Positions 52,776 to 60,223 of a stretch of 64,000 bases of DNA are shown piece by piece. The stretch comes from Candidatus Poriferisocius sp. (GTDB lineage Bacteria; Actinomycetota; Acidimicrobiia; Acidimicrobiales; Bin134). The notes beneath the pieces were generated by a model. That model was not told where the DNA came from. It saw only the letters and a list, made by a program, of their open reading frames with translations, and made no database searches. Location of the stretch: the NCBI RefSeq assembly GCF_965208475.1, contig NZ_OZ242338.1:978782-1042781 (forward strand), written 5' to 3'. Position 1 is the stretch's first letter; each line of letters opens with the position of its first letter. A program made the translations under genes and the position numbers.

Positions 52776-53738
52776 TCAGGCGCGGGCTTGCAGCGCTTCG
52801 ATCAGCTTGGGCAGCACCTTGTGTACGTCGCCGACAACGCCGAGGTCGGCGATGCCGAAAATGGGGGCCTCGGCGTCCTTGTTGATGGCGATGATGTTCT
52901 TGGAGCCCTTCATTCCCACCATGTGCTGGGTGGCCCCGGAGATACCGCAGGCCACGTAAACGTCGGGCTTGACCACCTTGCCGGTCTGGCCCACCTGATG
53001 GGAGTAGGGCACCCAGCCGGCGTCCACGATGGCACGCGACGCGCCCGCCGCTCCCCCGAGGAGCTTGGCCAGATCCTCGATCATGGCGTACTTCTCGGCC
53101 TCGCCCAACCCCCGTCCGCCGGAGACCACCACGCCGGCCTCGTCCAGCTTGGGCCCGCTGGATTCCTCGGCGAAGCGGTCGACCACCCGGGCTGCCCCGG
53201 TGGCGCCCAGATCGGGTACCGGCAGCGCCGATATCGCCGCTGGGGCTCCTCCGTTCTCCTCTGCGGCGAACGATTTGGGGCGGACTAGGAACAGGCCGAC
53301 GCCCGGCCGGTTGAAACAGGTGCTGACGTTGACCGTGCCGCCGAAAACCGGCTCGGTGCCGACCAATGCTCCGTCGGCTCGTTCCAGCTCGACGATGTTG
53401 GTGATAACCGACGAGCCCAGCTTCACCGAGAGCCGTCCGGCCACGTCTCTGCCGTCGTAAGTTGTGCCGAACAGCACCGCGTCGGGGCCTCCTCCCCCTT
53501 CGATGGCCGCCGCGATGGCCGAAGCCACCGCCGGCCCGGCCAGGCCGTCACCCAGATCGCCGGTGGCGTGCACCGTGGTTGCCCCGTGGGCGCCGAGTTC
53601 GGCAGCCACCGGCTCGCCGGCCGCGCCCACCACTGCTTCCACGGTGTCGGCCAACTCGCGGGCCCTGGTCAACAACTCCAGGCTGATCGAGGCGACCTTG
53701 CCGCCCGAGGCCTCAGCAAACACCCAGATGGTTCCCAT
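52776..53738 (-). CDS. etfA: Electron transfer flavoprotein alpha subunit
   Basis: ATG at 53738 with AGGAGG upstream. MGTIWVFAE start and a C-terminal FAD-binding SRAIVDAGW...[21 protein letters not shown]. Confidence 0.92.
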
Positions 53739-53766
53739 ACTGCCTCCTAGCGTCCTGTCCTGGCTC

Positions 53767-54546
53767 CTAGACGATCCTGAGTTCTTCGAGCAGGGTGATG
53801 ATGCGCTCATGGGCGTCGCCGTCGTCGGTGATGATCTCGCCGGCCTCACGCTCGGGAGCAGGGCTGACATCGGTGATCTCCTGGCCGCCGCCGGCCCAGC
53901 CCACCTGGTCGGCTTCGATGCCGAGGTCGCCGATCCCCACCTGGTCCATCGGCTTGGACTTGGCCGCCATAATGCCCTTGAACGACGGGTACCGGGGCTC
54001 GACCACCCCGGCGGTCACCGAGACCACCGCGGGCAGCGGGCATCGCACCTCGTCGTAGCCGGCCTCGGTCTGGCGCTTCACCACCACCTCGCCGCCATCG
54101 GCTTGGATCTCCTTGGCGAAGGTGACCGACGGCAGGCCCAGCAGCTCGGCCACCTGCTCGGGAACGGTGCCGGTGTAGCCGTCGGACGACTCGGTGGCGG
54201 CCAAAATCAGGTCGGCCTGGGCTCGTCCGATGGCCGCAGCCAGCACTCGGGCTGTGCCGAGTGCATCGGTTCCGGCCAGGGCCTCGTCGCTGACCAGAAT
54301 GGCCTTGTCGGCGCCCATGGCCAATGCCGAGCGCAGCCCGTTGACCTCTTCGTGGGGGGCCATCGACACCAGGGTCACCTCGCCCTCGCCGGCGGCGTCG
54401 CGCAGCTGGAGGGCCATTTCCACGCCGTAGGAGTCCGATTCGTCCATGATGAGCTTCATGTCCCGCTTGAGGGTGTTGGTTGCGGGGTCTAGCTGTCCGG
54501 GATCGGCCGGATCGGGGATTTGCTTTACACAGACGACGATGTCCAT
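53767..54546 (-). CDS. etfB: Electron transfer flavoprotein beta subunit
   Basis: ATG at 54546 gives MDIVVCVKQIPDP, the canonical EtfB N-terminus. Confidence 0.92.
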   Translation of the reverse strand: MDIVVCVKQIPDPADPGQLDPATNTLKRDMKLIMDESDSYGVEMALQLRDAAGEGEVTLVSMAPHEEVNGLRSALAMGADKAILVSDEALAGTDALGTARVLAAAIGRAQADLILAATESSDGYTGTVPEQVAELLGLPSVTFAKEIQADGGEVVVKRQTEAGYDEVRCPLPAVVSVTAGVVEPRYPSFKGIMAAKSKPMDQVGIGDLGIEADQVGWAGGGQEITDVSPAPEREAGEIITDDGDAHERIITLLEELRIV

Positions 54547-54660
54547 AGCGCACAAGTCTCCCACCACACCTCTGGCGCGCAAAACCAAACGCGGGGGAAC
54601 TGGGGCTCTCGCGAGGAGGGCCGCTTTTGACTCTGATGGGCAGGCAGTAGCGTTGACAGC

Positions 54661-55578
54661 CTGAAACTCCTGCTTCTCGTCAACCCCCACGCTTCGTCAG
54701 TCACCGCCCGCACCCAGGTGGTAATCCAAAAGGCACTGGCCGCCGACCATGATGTGACGCTGGCCAAGACCCACCGGCGGGGGCATGCCTCTCGCCTGGC
54801 CCATGGGGCGGTGGCCGACGGGTGCGATGTGGTGGCGGTGCTGGGGGGCGACGGAACCCTGAATGAGGCCATCAACGGTCTGGCCGCCTCCGACGTGGCG
54901 CTGGCCCCCCTGCCGGGTGGATCGACCAACGTTTTCGCCCGCTCCATAGGGCTGCCCGACGACCCGGTGGAGGCTGCCGCCATGCTGTTGGAGACTCTGG
55001 CCGCCGGGCGCATAGAGCGGATAGGACTGGGTCAGGTGAACGGGAGATATTTCCTGTTCCATGCCGGGGTGGGCTACGACGCCGCGGTTGTGCAGCAGGT
55101 CGAGCGCCGGGCCGGGCTGAAGCGTTACGCCAACCACGCACTGTTCGCCTTCGCAGCGGTCGACACCTGGATGCGCCACTACGACCGGTCGCAACCCCGG
55201 TTCACCGTCTACCACGCCGATGGGGAGGCGGTACCCGGCCAGTTCGCCATCTGCCTCAACACCGACCCCTACACCTATCTGGGGTCGCGTCCCTTCAAGG
55301 TGATGCCCGACACCACCCTGGATGCCCCCCTGGCCCTCGTGACCCTGCGCTCGCTGCGTGCCGGCAGGCTTCTCCGTACCGCGGCCAGCGCCCTCGGCTA
55401 CGGCCCTCCGGTCACCGCACATCGCCACGTCCACTCCCGTGCCGATGTGACCAGCGCCGTCGTGGCCAGCGACACCCCGTTCCCCTACCAACTCGACGGC
55501 GACTATCTCGGCGAAACCACCCGCCTGGAGTTCCACCATTCCCCCCAGGCCCTCGCCCTGGCCTTGCCGGTGGGGTGA
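54661..55578 (+). CDS. Diacylglycerol-kinase-family lipid kinase
   Basis: LGGDGTLNEAINGL catalytic motif. The ORF track starts at GTG 54718, but the conserved (L)KLLLLVNPHASS N-terminus lies in frame upstream from CTG 54661. Confidence 0.8.
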   Translation: MKLLLLVNPHASSVTARTQVVIQKALAADHDVTLAKTHRRGHASRLAHGAVADGCDVVAVLGGDGTLNEAINGLAASDVALAPLPGGSTNVFARSIGLPDDPVEAAAMLLETLAAGRIERIGLGQVNGRYFLFHAGVGYDAAVVQQVERRAGLKRYANHALFAFAAVDTWMRHYDRSQPRFTVYHADGEAVPGQFAICLNTDPYTYLGSRPFKVMPDTTLDAPLALVTLRSLRAGRLLRTAASALGYGPPVTAHRHVHSRADVTSAVVASDTPFPYQLDGDYLGETTRLEFHHSPQALALALPVG

Positions 55579-55584
55579 CGGGCA

Positions 55585-56121
55585 TCAGGGAATCAGCCCC
55601 TTCTGATATGCCCAGGCAAAGAACTCCTTTCCGTTTACCGGCAGCCGCATGTCAGTTGCCCGCAAGTCATCAACCAGGTTCTCTGCCTCGGACCTATCGA
55701 GGATTCCTGACTGGACTCCCTGGGCAACCAGCCACATCGAATCTTGAACCAATCTCCCGTCGCGTTGGGCCAAACGGCTGCCAGCACGCTCGTCGATAAC
55801 CGCCACGCCACCATGAACGCTTGTCCAGGCCAACACGGCGGCTTCGCCGGTATTCTCATGCGGCCCTCCGCCAAGTTCTGACTTGTAGCGAGCAAACGCT
55901 GCCAGTTCGCGAAATTCGGCGATCTCTATCGGTTCAAGCCATGGCACTACCAAGGCTTCGGCAATATCCGGGAACGCCACCATACCTTTGACGATTTCCT
56001 CGCGAACTTCTACAGGAACGAAGCACCGATAGCCATGGACCAGTTCCTCCAGCGTATTCAGCTTTCCGGCGCGGGCGAAGTGGCTAAGTGGCGAGTTGTC
56101 GAATACGAGGAACTGTGTCAC
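55585..56121 (-). CDS. PIN-like nuclease of the DUF3368 type (putative toxin)
   Basis: LVFDNSPLSHFARAGKL (first acidic PIN residue) and GEAAVLAWTSVHGGVAVIDERAGSRLAQRDGRLVQDSMWLVAQGVQSGIL, which matches the DUF3368 pattern. The start overlaps the upstream gene by 4 nt. Confidence 0.7.
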   Translation of the reverse strand: MTQFLVFDNSPLSHFARAGKLNTLEELVHGYRCFVPVEVREEIVKGMVAFPDIAEALVVPWLEPIEIAEFRELAAFARYKSELGGGPHENTGEAAVLAWTSVHGGVAVIDERAGSRLAQRDGRLVQDSMWLVAQGVQSGILDRSEAENLVDDLRATDMRLPVNGKEFFAWAYQKGLIP

Positions 56122-57227
56122 GCTTCGAGTTCGAACACATTCCGATAAGCCTCAAGTGGAATGTCGTCTTGAGGTGGCAGCCCTATGCGATCGACGGTTC
56201 CCCACAAAAGCTCGGTAGCGCGAGCAGCGGTGAGTTTTCCCCTTCGGTACGCCGTAAGAACTTTCCTGCCGTACTGGGGGGGTACGGCAGGTGGATCGAG
56301 TTCAGATACCCAATGTTCTCCTAGCTCAATGAAGTCCGCCCCAGACGGTGGTTGACCCGCAAGCTCTTCGCGGATTCCAGCATCGATTACACCGATATTG
56401 CGGAGCTGCGCGCACACCGCCGTCCAACTCAACCGGTAGCGAACCGCGGCCGCAACCGCCGTAAGCCGATAGTTAGTCCTGAACTCTGACCAAAGAGCGT
56501 CGGCATCAAGGCGCGGCAACAACAGGTGGATTGCAAAAGCGTTGATCAGCCTCTCCTGCTCGTCTTGAGGTGATAGTCCAATCTCCGGTGCATAGGCGTC
56601 CATGAAAACATGGTGGCCGAGTTCATGCGCGAGGTTGAATCTGCGTCGCCCCGGCTCAGACGCGCCATTTATTACTGCGACCCCAACTTCTCCAACCTCC
56701 ACATATGCGGCATCTCCTCCGTTCCTGCCGAGGTCAAGGGAAAATGTGAATAGCCCCACTTGTTCCGCCTGTGCCTGAAGTTCCAACAATGGGCCACTTG
56801 GCATCCCAAGGTGTTGACGCAACTTGATCGCTGCCTGTTCGGCACTCTGGATCGTGGACGGCGGGTCGAGTTCGAACCTCGTCAGGAGAGGTAGTTCTCC
56901 CTCGCTCGCGAGAAAATCTATGTCGCGGGCGATCCGCTCTACTCTTGTGTCGAGAATTCTCGACTGGCCGCCGACCAGTGGATCAGATCGTCGGCTGACC
57001 ACTGCTGGCGGCGAGGGAACAAAGAACCAATCAACCGGTCGGTCAAGTGCTTCAGCAAGCGCCACAAGCTCTGTCGCTCCCAGCTTGCGCGTTCCTTTCT
57101 CAATCTTCGCGATTACCGTTCGGCCCAAGCCCGTTTTCGAAGCAACCTGCTCTTGGGTCAGCCCCACGAGATCACGGGCCTCAGCAATACGAGCACTTAA
57201 CTGGACTTCCTCGGCCATTTCCTCCAT
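56118..57227 (-). CDS. XRE-family HTH fused to an ImmA/IrrE (COG2856) zinc metallopeptidase, with a C-terminal UPF0175-like segment
   Basis: HTH: LTQEQVASKTGLGRTVIAKIEKGTRK. HEXXH: FNLAHELGHHVF. C-terminus: KVLTAYRRGKLTAARATELLWGTV. Confidence 0.8.
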   Translation of the reverse strand: MEEMAEEVQLSARIAEARDLVGLTQEQVASKTGLGRTVIAKIEKGTRKLGATELVALAEALDRPVDWFFVPSPPAVVSRRSDPLVGGQSRILDTRVERIARDIDFLASEGELPLLTRFELDPPSTIQSAEQAAIKLRQHLGMPSGPLLELQAQAEQVGLFTFSLDLGRNGGDAAYVEVGEVGVAVINGASEPGRRRFNLAHELGHHVFMDAYAPEIGLSPQDEQERLINAFAIHLLLPRLDADALWSEFRTNYRLTAVAAAVRYRLSWTAVCAQLRNIGVIDAGIREELAGQPPSGADFIELGEHWVSELDPPAVPPQYGRKVLTAYRRGKLTAARATELLWGTVDRIGLPPQDDIPLEAYRNVFELEA

Positions 57228-57592
57228 TGTGCGATATTAGCACAATGGAGGGCAATCCGTGGCACCAATGTCCGATACCATGCCCGCTAGCCGGAGATAC
57301 AACAGCGCCTACGAACTCAGACCCCCGCCCAAACCCTACGCCCACCCGCGACCTTGGCAATCCAAACCCGACACGGCCACCCGACACACCGAACCGTTTC
57401 CCACAGCAGGAACCAGCACTGGACGCCCGGTCAACCGCCAACCGGTGCTACTGAGCTGAGGCCGGCATCTAGGGGCAGGGAGCCACGATATGAACGAATC
57501 GGCAACTCAGGGGATGGACTTGCCGGATCCAGGTTCGGCGCTTGGCCTCAAGTTGAAGAGCCTAGCCGTTTGGGATTGCGTAGCTGCTTGCC

Positions 57593-58297
57593 CTAGCTCA
57601 AGACTTCGCGGGCGATGTCGGGCACGTCGGTGATGACGGCGTCGGCGCCCATGGCGGCCAGTTGGGTGATTTGGTCGGGGTCGTTGACGGTCCAGACGTT
57701 GACCTCTAGGCCGGCGGCATGAGCGGCCTCCACCAGGGCCTGGCTGGTGGAGGCCACATAGGGATGAATTGCTGTATGGCCAGCAGAGGCCACCCGGTCG
57801 ACCAACAGGTCGGGAGCCAGTACCTCGAAGGTCAGGTAGGCGGTGGGAATCCCGGGGTCGATGGCCCTGATGCGGTTGAGGGCTTCCATGTCGAACGACG
57901 AGACGATTACCCCGCCGCCGTGGTCGCCGATGCCCCAGCCCAGAACCAATCCGGCCACCGCGGCCGACACCTGGTGCTCAGTGTCATAGTCGGGGTCACC
58001 GGGTGCGCTCTTGATCTCGATGTTGATGACGAACTCCCGCTCGGCGGTCGGATTCCGGCACACTTCCATGACCTCGGCCAGTGTCGGCACCCAGTCGGGC
58101 AATTCATCGTCTTGCAGGTCGATGATGGCCCGGCCGTCGGGCAGATGAGCGTCGTGGTGAGCTACCAGCACCTCGTTGGCCGTCCTCCTGACGTCGAGCT
58201 CCACACCGTCGGCGTTCAGCCGCACTGCGGCCCGAAATGCCTCTAGCGTGTTCTCCCTCTCAGCCGCCGACGCCCCCCGATGGGCGATCACCCTCAC
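57593..58297 (-). CDS. glpQ: Glycerophosphodiester phosphodiesterase
   Basis: VIAHRGASAAERENTLEAF opening and ITDVPD near the C-terminus. Confidence 0.88.
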   Translation of the reverse strand: MRVIAHRGASAAERENTLEAFRAAVRLNADGVELDVRRTANEVLVAHHDAHLPDGRAIIDLQDDELPDWVPTLAEVMEVCRNPTAEREFVINIEIKSAPGDPDYDTEHQVSAAVAGLVLGWGIGDHGGGVIVSSFDMEALNRIRAIDPGIPTAYLTFEVLAPDLLVDRVASAGHTAIHPYVASTSQALVEAAHAAGLEVNVWTVNDPDQITQLAAMGADAVITDVPDIAREVLS

Positions 58298-58424: not shown

Positions 58425-58730
58425 GTGATGACCAAGAGTTTGCTTTTCGATTTCTACAACGCGGCTGAAGATTGGCGCTGCCAAGCGGCCTGCCGGGATA
58501 CCGACCCTGATCTGTTCTTTCCCGTGGGCAGCACCGGCCTGGCCCTCGAGCAGATCGAGTCGGCCAAGGTGGTCTGCCAGCAGTGCAACTCCCAAACCGC
58601 CTGTTTGGAGTTCGCTTTGGCCACCAACCAGGACTCTGGCGTCTGGGGCGGCAAGTCTGAGGATGAGCGGCGGCAACTTCGACGACTCAGGGTGGCCGAG
58701 CAGCGCCAAGCCCCCATCTTCTCGGTCTAG
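58425..58730 (+). CDS. whiB: WhiB-family redox-sensing transcription factor (WhiB1-like by context)
   Basis: C-x-(n)-C-x2-C-x5-C (CQAAC...CQQCNSQTAC), GVWGG turn and a basic tail. Adjacent to pdtaS, as whiB1 (Rv3219) is to Rv3220c. Confidence 0.88.
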   Translation: MMTKSLLFDFYNAAEDWRCQAACRDTDPDLFFPVGSTGLALEQIESAKVVCQQCNSQTACLEFALATNQDSGVWGGKSEDERRQLRRLRVAEQRQAPIFSV

Positions 58731-60223
58731 CCGCTAGCCGGGGAGCGGAACCCCAGCAGGGGGATCGCCACCTCCACCACTGTTCCGGGCCGGGGTGGGG
58801 CACTTGGGCCACTGCTCATGGTGATGCTCCCTCGCAGGTCGGTGCTCACCAGGTTTCGCACGATGGCGATCCCCAGCCCTTCGGTGTTGTCCACTTCGAA
58901 ACCAGCCGGGAGCCCCACTCCGTCGTCGGTTACCCGCACCTGCACTCGGTCGCCGTCGTTGTCCAGCTCGATCCGCACTTGCCCGCCGGGCGGCTCGGGG
59001 TAGGCGTGGTCCATCACATTCTGCAAGCACTCGTTGAGCACCACCGCCAGCGGTGTGGCCACATCGGCGGCCAGTTCCCCGGCATCGCCCGTCACCTTGA
59101 ACTCAACCGGCCGGTCGGGACCGGTCAGCCCCTCCTCCACCATGCGCACCAGCGACAGCACGATCTCGACGAAGGGCACGTCGCTGCTGGCATCACGCGA
59201 CAAAATCTCGTGGACGATGGCGATCGCCCGGATGCGCCTCACCGACTCCTCGATGGCATCTCGGGCCTCCGCTGCGGTGACCCGGCGCCCTTGTAGGCGC
59301 AATAGCGAGGACACCGTCTGGAGGTTGTTCTTCACCCGGTGGTGGATCTCGGCGATAGTGGCGTCTTTGGACATCAACAGGCGGTCTCGACGGCGCAACT
59401 CGGAGATGTCCCGCATCAGGACCAATGCCCCGGTCACCTCTCCCCCGCCGATCAGCGGCAGGCAGCGCAGCACCACCGTGCTCTGATCGCCGTGCTGGAT
59501 CTCCTCGGTCTGGGGAAGACGGGAGGCGAATGCAGCTCGGATGGCCCGCTGCTCCAGACCGATCTCCACCAGCCGGCGGCCCTCGACCTCGCTGTGGAGT
59601 CCGATGCGGTGCAAGGCCGAAGCGGCATTGGGCGAGATGAGCAGAACTCGGCCGGAGGCGTCCAGCAGCATCAGGCCGTCGCCCACCCGGGGGGATTCCT
59701 CTGTCTCGATGTCGTCTACCGGGAACGGGTATTCCCCCTCGGCGATCATGGCCGCCAGCCGCCGGAACAGCTTGAAGTAGCTCATCTCCAACTCGCCGGG
59801 ATTCCGCTGGATGTCGGGGTCGAACTCCCGGGCCATCACCGCGATCACCTCGCCGTGGCAGCTCACCGGCACGGTCAGCGTGCGGATGCGGGGCTGGTCG
59901 GCTCGACCGATGCGCCCGCCGTCGGTGATCCTCCCCTCGCGGTAGGCCACGTCCACCAGCGGACGCTGCTCGGGGGCGAAGACAGCCCCCACCAGATCGC
60001 TTCGATGCACCGATCGGGCGGTGGTGGGCCGGATCTGGCCTGCGATGGCATAGCCGTTTGGGCCCTCGGCTGGGCGGTTTTGGGCCACCCGACTAGTGGG
60101 CACGTACAGCAGCAGGTCGGCGAAGGAGATGTCGGCCAGCGGCGCCCATGTCCGCATCAGCCTCTGGAGATGGTTCAGACGCGACTGGGGCAGGCCGGGG
60201 GCCAATTCCTCCAGGCTCGCCAT
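58727..60223 (-). CDS. pdtaS: GAF/PAS sensor histidine kinase, PdtaS type
   Basis: HisKA_2 H-box EIHHRVKNNLQTVSSLL and HATPase motifs (DDGVGLP, EGLGIAIV). Confidence 0.85.
   Translation of the reverse strand: MASLEELAPGLPQSRLNHLQRLMRTWAPLADISFADLLLYVPTSRVAQNRPAEGPNGYAIAGQIRPTTARSVHRSDLVGAVFAPEQRPLVDVAYREGRITDGGRIGRADQPRIRTLTVPVSCHGEVIAVMAREFDPDIQRNPGELEMSYFKLFRRLAAMIAEGEYPFPVDDIETEESPRVGDGLMLLDASGRVLLISPNAASALHRIGLHSEVEGRRLVEIGLEQRAIRAAFASRLPQTEEIQHGDQSTVVLRCLPLIGGGEVTGALVLMRDISELRRRDRLLMSKDATIAEIHHRVKNNLQTVSSLLRLQGRRVTAAEARDAIEESVRRIRAIAIVHEILSRDASSDVPFVEIVLSLVRMVEEGLTGPDRPVEFKVTGDAGELAADVATPLAVVLNECLQNVMDHAYPEPPGGQVRIELDNDGDRVQVRVTDDGVGLPAGFEVDNTEGLGIAIVRNLVSTDLRGSITMSSGPSAPPRPGTVVEVAIPLLGFRSPASG

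Follow-up and report, generated by a model that had tools for sequence, protein, structure and literature searches.

How is a nuclease of the PIN fold kept in check when its partner is a large DNA-binding protease and not a small antitoxin? This question is raised by two overlapping genes in a stretch of 64,000 nucleotides (nt) from Candidatus Poriferisocius sp. (contig NZ_OZ242338.1, positions 978,782 to 1,042,781 of the forward strand), which is called the window below and to which all coordinates refer unless a locus is named. Both genes were taken from the list of open reading frames (ORFs): gene A (56118-57227, minus strand) encodes 369 residues and gene B (55585-56121, minus strand) 178 residues. 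In an earlier interpretation made from the letters of the DNA (the sequence-only reading), the pair was considered a two-gene module in which a UPF0175-like tail is fused behind an ImmA-type protease and might release a DUF3368 PIN nuclease by self-cleavage or on a signal. The present analysis favors, at a probability of roughly 0.7, a horizontally acquired, autoregulated bicistronic cassette of the toxin-antitoxin (TA) type, belonging to the Xre-COG2856 (RosmerTA-like) class, with a divergent COG2405/DUF3368-type PIN nuclease as its toxin. Both the architecture and the idea of a protease-gated antitoxin have already been published, and the cassette is a well-preserved additional example of a described class; what the locus adds is a well-sampled clade in Actinomycetota, a specific C-terminal module, and an operator with an apparently leaderless start.

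The product of gene A (56118..57227, minus strand) was found to combine an XRE-type helix-turn-helix (HTH), an M78 (ImmA/IrrE) zinc peptidase and a family-specific C-terminal module, and it is a putative antitoxin and autorepressor resembling RmrA. The HTH covers residues 14-68 (57024..57188, minus strand; Pfam HTH_3, E 1e-14), and the Peptidase_M78 domain covers residues 154-275 (56403..56768, minus strand; PF06114, E 7e-15). The HEXXH motif (H201, E202 and H205 within FNLAHELGHH) lies at 56613-56627 and the third zinc ligand, E225, at 56553-56555, both on the minus strand; E225 belongs to the 'ExxxNxFA' segment, whose Glu is the third ligand in M78 enzymes. Across 38 aligned homologues H201, E202, H205, H206 and E225 are unchanged, and the zinc site of the peptidase is thus complete. 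The XRE HTH and the intact ImmA-type peptidase of the sequence-only reading are thereby confirmed. In the same alignment the protein is conserved from end to end, including the C-terminal tail, with a mean column identity of 66%. Homologues of gene A numbered 546, and more than 100 were found for each of the two genes.

Structural comparison gave a similar picture of gene A. The AlphaFold2 model reached a predicted local distance difference test score (pLDDT) of 87.4 and a predicted template modelling score of 0.84. In Foldseek, the best matches of the protease part were IrrE/PprI structures (3dti and 8sln; E ~4e-4), among them a complex with single-stranded DNA (ssDNA), and the N-terminus matched the XRE-type controller proteins C.AhdI and C.BclI with a root-mean-square deviation of ~1 Å. 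Furthermore, the PADLOC models for RmrA, the antitoxin of RosmerTA, match residues 12-289 (best E 1.2e-22, for residues 12-281), and phrog_2439 of PHROGs matches residues 11-282 with E 3e-32. The spr1629 repressor/antitoxin family of NCBIfam gave a weak match (E 2.3e-5; 23.7 bits against a cutoff of 335 bits). The RmrA and PHROG profile matches all end at about residue 282-289. The HTH is joined to the protease domain by a stretch that contains a nearly invariant segment, SPPAVVSRRSDP (residues 72-83, window 56980-57015), in a region where the pLDDT of about 71-77 is the lowest in the N-terminal half of the model; this segment might serve as a flexible linker or as the site of cleavage.

The product of gene B (55585..56121, minus strand) is a putative toxin with the predicted fold of a PIN nuclease. 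Its AlphaFold2 model has a pLDDT of 93.9, and the best Foldseek matches of the model are VapC/PIN proteins with a probability of 1.00 and a target-normalised template modelling score of 0.6-0.71. The acidic residues, whose lack had been named beforehand as evidence against the sequence-only reading, are all present: D8 (56098-56100), E42 (55996-55998), E93 (55843-55845) and D110 (55792-55794), all on the minus strand, are unchanged across 36 homologues. Because the score of the window protein against Pfam DUF3368 (PF11848; 13.2 bits, E 0.087) lies under the gathering cutoff of 27.3 bits, the affiliation with DUF3368 was based on profile-profile comparison; the same Pfam model matched 29 of the 36 family members at a level from sub-threshold to weak (best E 8e-6). 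In hhalign, the gene B family profile and an annotated haloarchaeal DUF3368 protein were aligned over 144 columns with a probability of 98.2% (E 4.7e-14), in a register that places D8, E42, E93 and D110 opposite D, E, D and D of the canonical protein. In tblastn, gene B and annotated DUF3368 proteins were 24-27% identical across 80-85% of the length, the lowest E value being 1e-5. The modeled PIN fold, the invariant acids and the hhalign match together identify gene B as a divergent COG2405/DUF3368-type PIN nuclease with its predicted active site intact, so the relation to DUF3368 that had been proposed holds despite the low Pfam score. The sole PADLOC match of gene B was the defence candidate PDC-S70 (E 4e-10).

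The pair is not a singular occurrence. When one genome from each GTDB species was surveyed, 32 loci emerged, almost all of them in Acidimicrobiia or in other metagenome-assembled genomes (MAGs) of Actinomycetota, sponge-associated lineages included. A full-length gene A homologue stands directly upstream of the PIN gene in 26 of the 32, and the tail was significantly matched in 25 of these 26. The geometry of translational coupling, which the sequence-only reading had noted in the window, is likewise general. In the window the GTG with which gene B starts overlaps the TGA that ends gene A, the two genes sharing the four nucleotides GTGA (56118..56121, minus strand; read from the sequence as ...GAA GCG TGA CAC...), and a start/stop overlap of the form NTGA was found in 23 of the 24 loci examined. 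Even a pair on a Tsukamurella plasmid, at 32-34% identity, is built in the same way, with the tail and a HELAH motif. On plasmid 5 of Tsukamurella tyrosinosolvens (L008:4546-4734), a third overlapping ORF follows the A-B pair and is annotated as a VbhA-family antitoxin; it may be an orphan or an extra component. Three loci hold cassette fragments only (L026:8001-8330, L036:8001-8297 and L038:7732-8093): the PIN gene is reduced to its 3' two-thirds or to a 5' stub, or a piece of the gene A tail is left, the L026 remnant adjoining the same DAGK gene as in the window. These remnants show that the cassette decays in some lineages.

A comparison of partners showed that the same family of nucleases is served by two kinds of protein. 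The three most distant PINs of the survey (28-34% identity) occur without gene A, and two of them have UPF0175-like partners: an overlapping 83-residue UPF0175-like ORF was found upstream of a distant DUF3368-type PIN gene in an Anaerolineales MAG (L037:7742-7993) and in Microseira wollei (L040:7721-7972). Genuine UPF0175-DUF3368 pairs were recovered from haloarchaeal plasmids as well, in agreement with the earlier statement that canonical DUF3368 PINs pair with small stand-alone UPF0175 proteins. UPF0175 partners were seen only with canonical and distant PINs (L006, L007, L037 and L040). The distribution documents an exchange of partners inside a single PIN family, with UPF0175 in archaea, cyanobacteria and Chloroflexota and the HTH-M78-tail protein in Actinomycetota; such an exchange is an example of the "hyperpromiscuity" by which TA systems recombine as modules.

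The upstream end of gene A carries a perfect palindrome, CCTCCATTGTGC-TAATATC-GCACAATGGAGG (57221..57251), to which the XRE HTH of gene A probably binds as its operator. The palindrome includes the start of gene A, and its arms of 12 nt are 100% complementary and are separated by a 7-nt spacer. Of the 16-base core a single copy was counted over the 64 kb of the window, where 0.03 would be expected. In 22 of 26 loci, GTGC-N7-GCAC directly adjoins the gene A start codon (L009:6877-6899, L017:6877-6899, L029:6859-6881 and 19 further loci), and two more are near-misses by one base; elsewhere the motif was found 12 times in 353 kb. The operator spacer of the window, read from the sequence, contains the -10-like hexamer TAATAT (57234..57239, minus strand), 6 nt 5' of the ATG. 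In all relatives the spacer is -10-like too (TAGAAT, CAGAAT, GATAAT, GAAAAT), and an ATG or GTG follows 1-3 nt beyond the right arm, about 6-8 nt beyond the hexamer. The position of a -10-like box within a palindrome that abuts the start codon implies a leaderless, autorepressed operon, whose promoter would be occluded upon binding of the XRE domain to the palindrome, as in classical type II TA autoregulation. The operator and the proposed leaderless design are a new detail from this locus. The sigma-70 consensus scan considered below gave one weak terminator-like site, which lies inside gene A.

Several known systems resemble the cassette, and each departs from it at a different point. Makarova 2009 described operons in which a COG2856-Xre fusion accompanies a PIN or RelE toxin, and proposed for them a protease-controlled 'three-component' TA circuit (PMC2701414). 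In Matelska 2017, PINs of COG2405 (= DUF3368) were reported as co-transcribed with HTH plus DUF955/COG2856 proteins, for example in Geobacillus sp. Y412MC61, where an HTH-DUF955 gene lies upstream of the COG2405 gene GYMC61_2169, and UPF0175 was found exclusively with COG2405 (PMC5499597). The combination in the window is exactly this one: a COG2405 PIN gene preceded by a gene in which HTH and COG2856 are fused. Those descriptions, however, were computational predictions only and held neither the C-terminal module nor the operator, and the present clade differs in being specific to Actinomycetota/Acidimicrobiia and in the high divergence of its PIN (13 bits against Pfam DUF3368). The gated release of the nuclease that the sequence-only reading had proposed fits the logic of this class but is not novel, being a published hypothesis (PMC2701414, PMC5499597).

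The closest experimentally studied class is RosmerTA, in which a Zn-peptidase antitoxin takes part in anti-phage defence (Millman 2022; 10.1101/2022.05.11.491447). In the NetFlax network of Ernits 2023, an ImmA/Rosmer antitoxin hub (node D25) is associated with PIN-like toxins, and RmrA was confirmed as an antitoxin (PMC10440598). RosmerTA and D25 share with the cassette an antitoxin of about 360-400 residues with an XRE HTH and an M78/ImmA peptidase, a two-gene operon and a swappable toxin, whereas gene B is a COG2405/DUF3368-type PIN and the last ~80 residues of gene A do not align to the RmrA models; toxicity and defence are predictions for the present clade. Another relative is RipAB (Spr1630/Spr1629) of Streptococcus pneumoniae, whose RipB is an antitoxin of the Rosmer family with XRE and ImmA-like parts (PMC12795458). 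RipB antagonises its own toxin, and gene A has the weak spr1629 match given above; yet RipA targets the DnaN sliding clamp and is no PIN, the action of RipB is ClpX-dependent, and the sequence similarity is weak.

The remaining systems share single parts with the cassette. In the UPF0175 (COG2886)-DUF3368 pairs the toxin is homologous, as the hhalign probability of 98.2% indicates, and the antitoxin gene is likewise upstream and overlapping, but the partner is an 83-96-residue UPF0175 protein in place of the 369-residue HTH-protease, the tail of which is not detectably UPF0175. ImmR/ImmA, DdrO/IrrE(PprI) and CapH/CapP have the M78 protease fold and an XRE repressor, and they set the precedent for cleavage of a repressor upon a signal. 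Their components, however, are separate proteins governing large regulons, mobile elements or the cyclic-oligonucleotide-based anti-phage signaling system, whereas gene A joins repressor and protease in one chain that controls a translationally coupled nuclease. VapBC, a type II TA system, has a PIN-fold toxin, an upstream overlapping antitoxin gene and autoregulation through a palindromic operator, the last of which is likely here too; in contrast to VapB, gene A is not a small ribbon-helix-helix, AbrB or Phd protein and contains a catalytic protease domain.

Which part of gene A might neutralise the nuclease is the point on which the C-terminal module bears. This family-specific module spans residues 291-369 (79 residues; 56121..56357, minus strand), with helices at 296-302, 317-328, 334-340 and 358-368, and its alignment contains 14 invariant columns. 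In the AlphaFold2 model of the monomer, residues 291-350 have a pLDDT of 88-96, and the last helix, with the motif PLExxRRxF and the invariant R362, is of lower confidence. Searches of Pfam, NCBIfam and PHROG gave no match to the tail (in Pfam, nothing at residues 276-369), and when the gene A model was compared by Foldseek with PDB and BFVD the HTH and IrrE-type domains were matched and the tail was not. A search of 1.84 billion representative sequences with a profile of the tail returned just 170 matches, the full-length ones being proteins of about 365-390 residues in which the match is C-terminal. Stand-alone relatives of the tail were sought among the short matches of this search and were rejected, since they are pieces, or wrongly called ORFs, of members of the same long family, with no recognisable UPF0175.

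The sequence-only reading had taken the last ~50 residues of gene A for a UPF0175 (COG2886) antitoxin domain fused behind the HTH-ImmA sensor, which would make the cassette a UPF0175-DUF3368 pair with a protease gate. Gene B is indeed homologous to DUF3368 PINs whose canonical partners are stand-alone UPF0175 proteins, and a resemblance between the tail and UPF0175 was found in hhalign. The initial UPF0175 family alignment was shallow (82-95% identity) and was deepened with the UPF0175-like ORFs of L037 and L040. The probability was 1.2% for the tail profile against one UPF0175 sequence, 5.6% against the haloarchaeal UPF0175 family alignment, and 6.3% for a 67-sequence tail profile against the three-lineage alignment that included the L037 and L040 ORFs. 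Throughout, the register was constant and covered a hairpin of 20-25 residues, with 'AYRRGKLTAARATELL' of the tail against 'aaG.IS..KAAELAG' of UPF0175. Since the score of 18.4 exceeds all of 30 column-shuffled controls (maximum 14.3), the likeness appears real but local and faint, and homology is not established by it.

Other comparisons speak against a UPF0175 domain. The Pfam model of UPF0175 matched one of 24 diverse tails, with E 0.19, a noise level shared with eight unrelated families, and the tail of the window was unmatched. UPF0175 has a classical three-helix HTH core (Makarova 2009). In the tail model, two helices (317-328 and 334-340) occupy the stretch aligned to UPF0175, residues 341-357 are non-helical, and the third HTH helix appears to have no counterpart. 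Designed alphaRep/HEAT-like proteins in PDB were also considered as homologues of the tail and were rejected, their matches to residues 319-345 (window 56193-56273; E 2e-6 summed) being spurious multi-repeat hits. The hairpin motif fits the HEAT-like repeats of alphaRep as well as it fits UPF0175, as expected of a generic helix hairpin similar to 'AAYxxGKIGDERAVEPL', and this control is a warning against deriving homology from the motif. With the hhalign probabilities of 1.2-6.3% and the lack of stand-alone relatives in the profile search, these results favor a clade-specific module; that the tail is homologous to UPF0175 is unlikely, and the fusion proposed from the sequence is correspondingly improbable as an account of the cassette.

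The same module is the best candidate for a toxin-specific element, which is suggestive and follows from three properties: it is not shared with other RmrA-like proteins, it is restricted to this PIN clade, and its divergence tracks that of the PIN. In fact, the RmrA models and phrog_2439 cover only residues ~11-289 of gene A, leaving the tail as the part that distinguishes the clade. In a mirror-tree analysis with partial Mantel tests, distances between tails follow distances between PINs, with partial r of 0.63 and 0.46 and p ~5e-4. A further proposal combines the parts: the module, either a degenerate UPF0175 descendant or an independently evolved PIN-binding element, would be joined to the Xre-COG2856 sensor-protease in a single chain acting as repressor, sensor-protease and antitoxin, whose triggered self-cleavage would both derepress the leaderless operon and free the DUF3368-type PIN. 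The proposal is unlikely. If it were true, how M78-protease antitoxins of the Rosmer class sense a trigger and release their toxins could conveniently be studied in this compact and highly conserved family of Acidimicrobiia.

Under the favored TA interpretation, a course of events can be proposed by analogy. Gene A would be translated from a leaderless mRNA, and its protein, probably dimeric, would use the HTH to bind the palindrome and would repress its own operon. Protein A would neutralise the PIN nuclease, most plausibly through direct binding by the C-terminal module. In other systems, the tails of VapB and FitA occlude the acidic pocket of their PIN toxins; the last helix of protein A, with PLExxRRxF and R362, could speculatively do the same. 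The M78 protease would serve as the switch, a cue derived from phage or from damage leading to cleavage of protein A in cis or in trans, as with ImmA, IrrE and CapP. Cleavage would derepress the operon and free the nuclease, and the resulting cleavage of RNA would bring about growth arrest or abortive infection. For Xre-COG2856 (RosmerTA-type) antitoxins, the locus offers a clean case in which to study the target of the protease, its trigger and the toxin-neutralising part, as it has a toxin with a predictable active site, a sharply bounded antitoxin module, a strongly conserved operator over the promoter and an apparently leaderless start.

The main rival to this interpretation is a switch that works at the level of transcription, in the manner of a fused CapH/CapP or ImmR/ImmA. 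Protein A would repress the operon and cleave itself upon a signal of DNA damage or phage, and the nuclease would be controlled by its expression level, with no neutralisation between proteins. Such a design agrees with the weaker PADLOC matches of gene A to capP (E 6e-12) and capH (E 2e-7), with the strong conserved operator over the promoter, and with the nearest solved folds being those of IrrE/PprI, the ssDNA complex included; furthermore, ImmA, IrrE and CapP all cleave an XRE repressor (PMC2701414, PMC10440598). The coupling geometry tells against it, since basal expression from genes with the NTGA overlap yields the PIN along with protein A and so requires stoichiometric neutralisation. 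RmrA and RipB, moreover, are true antitoxins, as a deletion of rmrA was unobtainable and RipB neutralises in trans (10.1101/2022.05.11.491447, PMC12795458), and the clade-specific tail is found exclusively with this PIN clade. Control by transcription alone is judged improbable, yet it is the strongest of the competing accounts.

It might also be supposed that the cassette is no toxin system, and that a regulator is co-transcribed by chance with a housekeeping PIN nuclease of RNA processing. The pair adjoins core metabolic genes for DAGK, the electron transfer flavoprotein (ETF) and a glycerophosphodiester phosphodiesterase (GDPD), both in the window and in close relatives, as this would predict. 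A housekeeping function is at odds with the patchy phyletic distribution, the decay seen in L026, L036 and L038, the low-GC cassette, the recurrence in islands of restriction-modification (RM) and TA genes and in an element resembling an actinomycete integrative and conjugative element (AICE), and the homology to TA and defence families, and it is regarded as highly improbable.

Some results weigh against the TA interpretation itself or leave parts of it less specific. Gene B matches none of the RmrT models of PADLOC. The scan with a simple sigma-70 consensus found no full -35/-10 promoter, and for that reason the promoter was placed by the conserved -10-like spacer. After removal of outliers the HTH gives a partial correlation with the PIN similar to that of the tail, so the signal of coevolution is not tail-specific, and a tail that folds confidently in the monomer suits a structural or sensor domain equally well as a toxin-binding element. 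A scan of viral contigs found no relatives of the cassette, and some contexts of homologous pairs are not obviously defensive.

The genomic contexts of the homologues fit a mobile accessory cassette residing in defence and TA islets, which by itself is no discrete integrative element. Homologous pairs were found to adjoin type III RM, RES, AbiEii, HepT/MNT, Fic and another PIN; one pair lies beside a UPF0150 gene and a gene for a 903-residue methyltransferase (L009), and one occupies a variable region that also holds Fic and Arr. The recurrence that the sequence-only reading had suggested surveying was found, the HTH-M78-tail and PIN pair standing in 26 of 32 loci, some of them in RM/TA islands. 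At L042:5403-9424, a homologous cassette is found beside genes for a serine recombinase, RepSA and an FtsK/SpoIIIE-like protein; this is an AICE-like signature and hints at one way in which the cassette spreads. The locus of the window was searched for marks of a discrete mobile element, and neither a tRNA, nor meaningful flanking direct repeats, nor an Rfam family was found.

The boundary of the cassette was drawn from synteny and base composition. The whole cassette, made up of promoter/operator, gene A and gene B, is a block of low GC at 55585..57271 (minus strand). Synteny with L009, L017 and L002 begins at window 57245-57271, that is, at the operator, and proceeds through gene A, gene B, DAGK and ETF. 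In L009, an insert of 6.5 kb (L009:321-6851) lies directly 5' of the operator and carries a gene for 599 residues, the gene for the 903-residue N6 methyltransferase and a UPF0150/HicB-like gene. Beyond this insert, L009:152-321 is 77% identical to a 171-nt piece of the window spacer (57291-57460). The spacer outside the operator and promoter appears to be an insertion-prone junction similar to a hot spot. The lower GC content that had been judged by eye was borne out by measurement, with 0.555-0.583 over 55600-57400 against 0.65-0.71 (around 0.68) in both flanks, and the dip over the cassette is also present in the relative L017.

The placement of the cassette between a lipid kinase gene and glpQ was confirmed by the coordinates, and the descriptive statements of the sequence-only reading on genes, spacing and composition all held. 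The stop codons of gene B and of the convergent DAGK_cat gene (54718-55578, plus strand) are 6 nt apart. On the other side, the next gene upstream of gene A is a GDPD (glpQ-like) gene (57593-58297, minus strand), which is reached across a non-coding spacer of 365 nt (57228..57592) with the operator and promoter at its gene A end; a search of this spacer in Rfam gave no match and a tRNA search found none. Apart from its use for mechanistic study noted above, the cassette is an ordinary piece of accessory DNA in the genome of an uncultured member of Acidimicrobiia and would be no surprise to a specialist. Past the GDPD gene, a WhiB-family ORF with a CxxC...C motif (58425-58730, plus strand) stands beside an ORF of 498 residues resembling a sensor histidine kinase (58727-60223, minus strand), and ETF alpha/beta genes lie at 52776-54690. 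The WhiB-family ORF, the histidine kinase-like ORF and the ETF genes together indicate a high-GC host of Actinomycetota (Acidimicrobiia).

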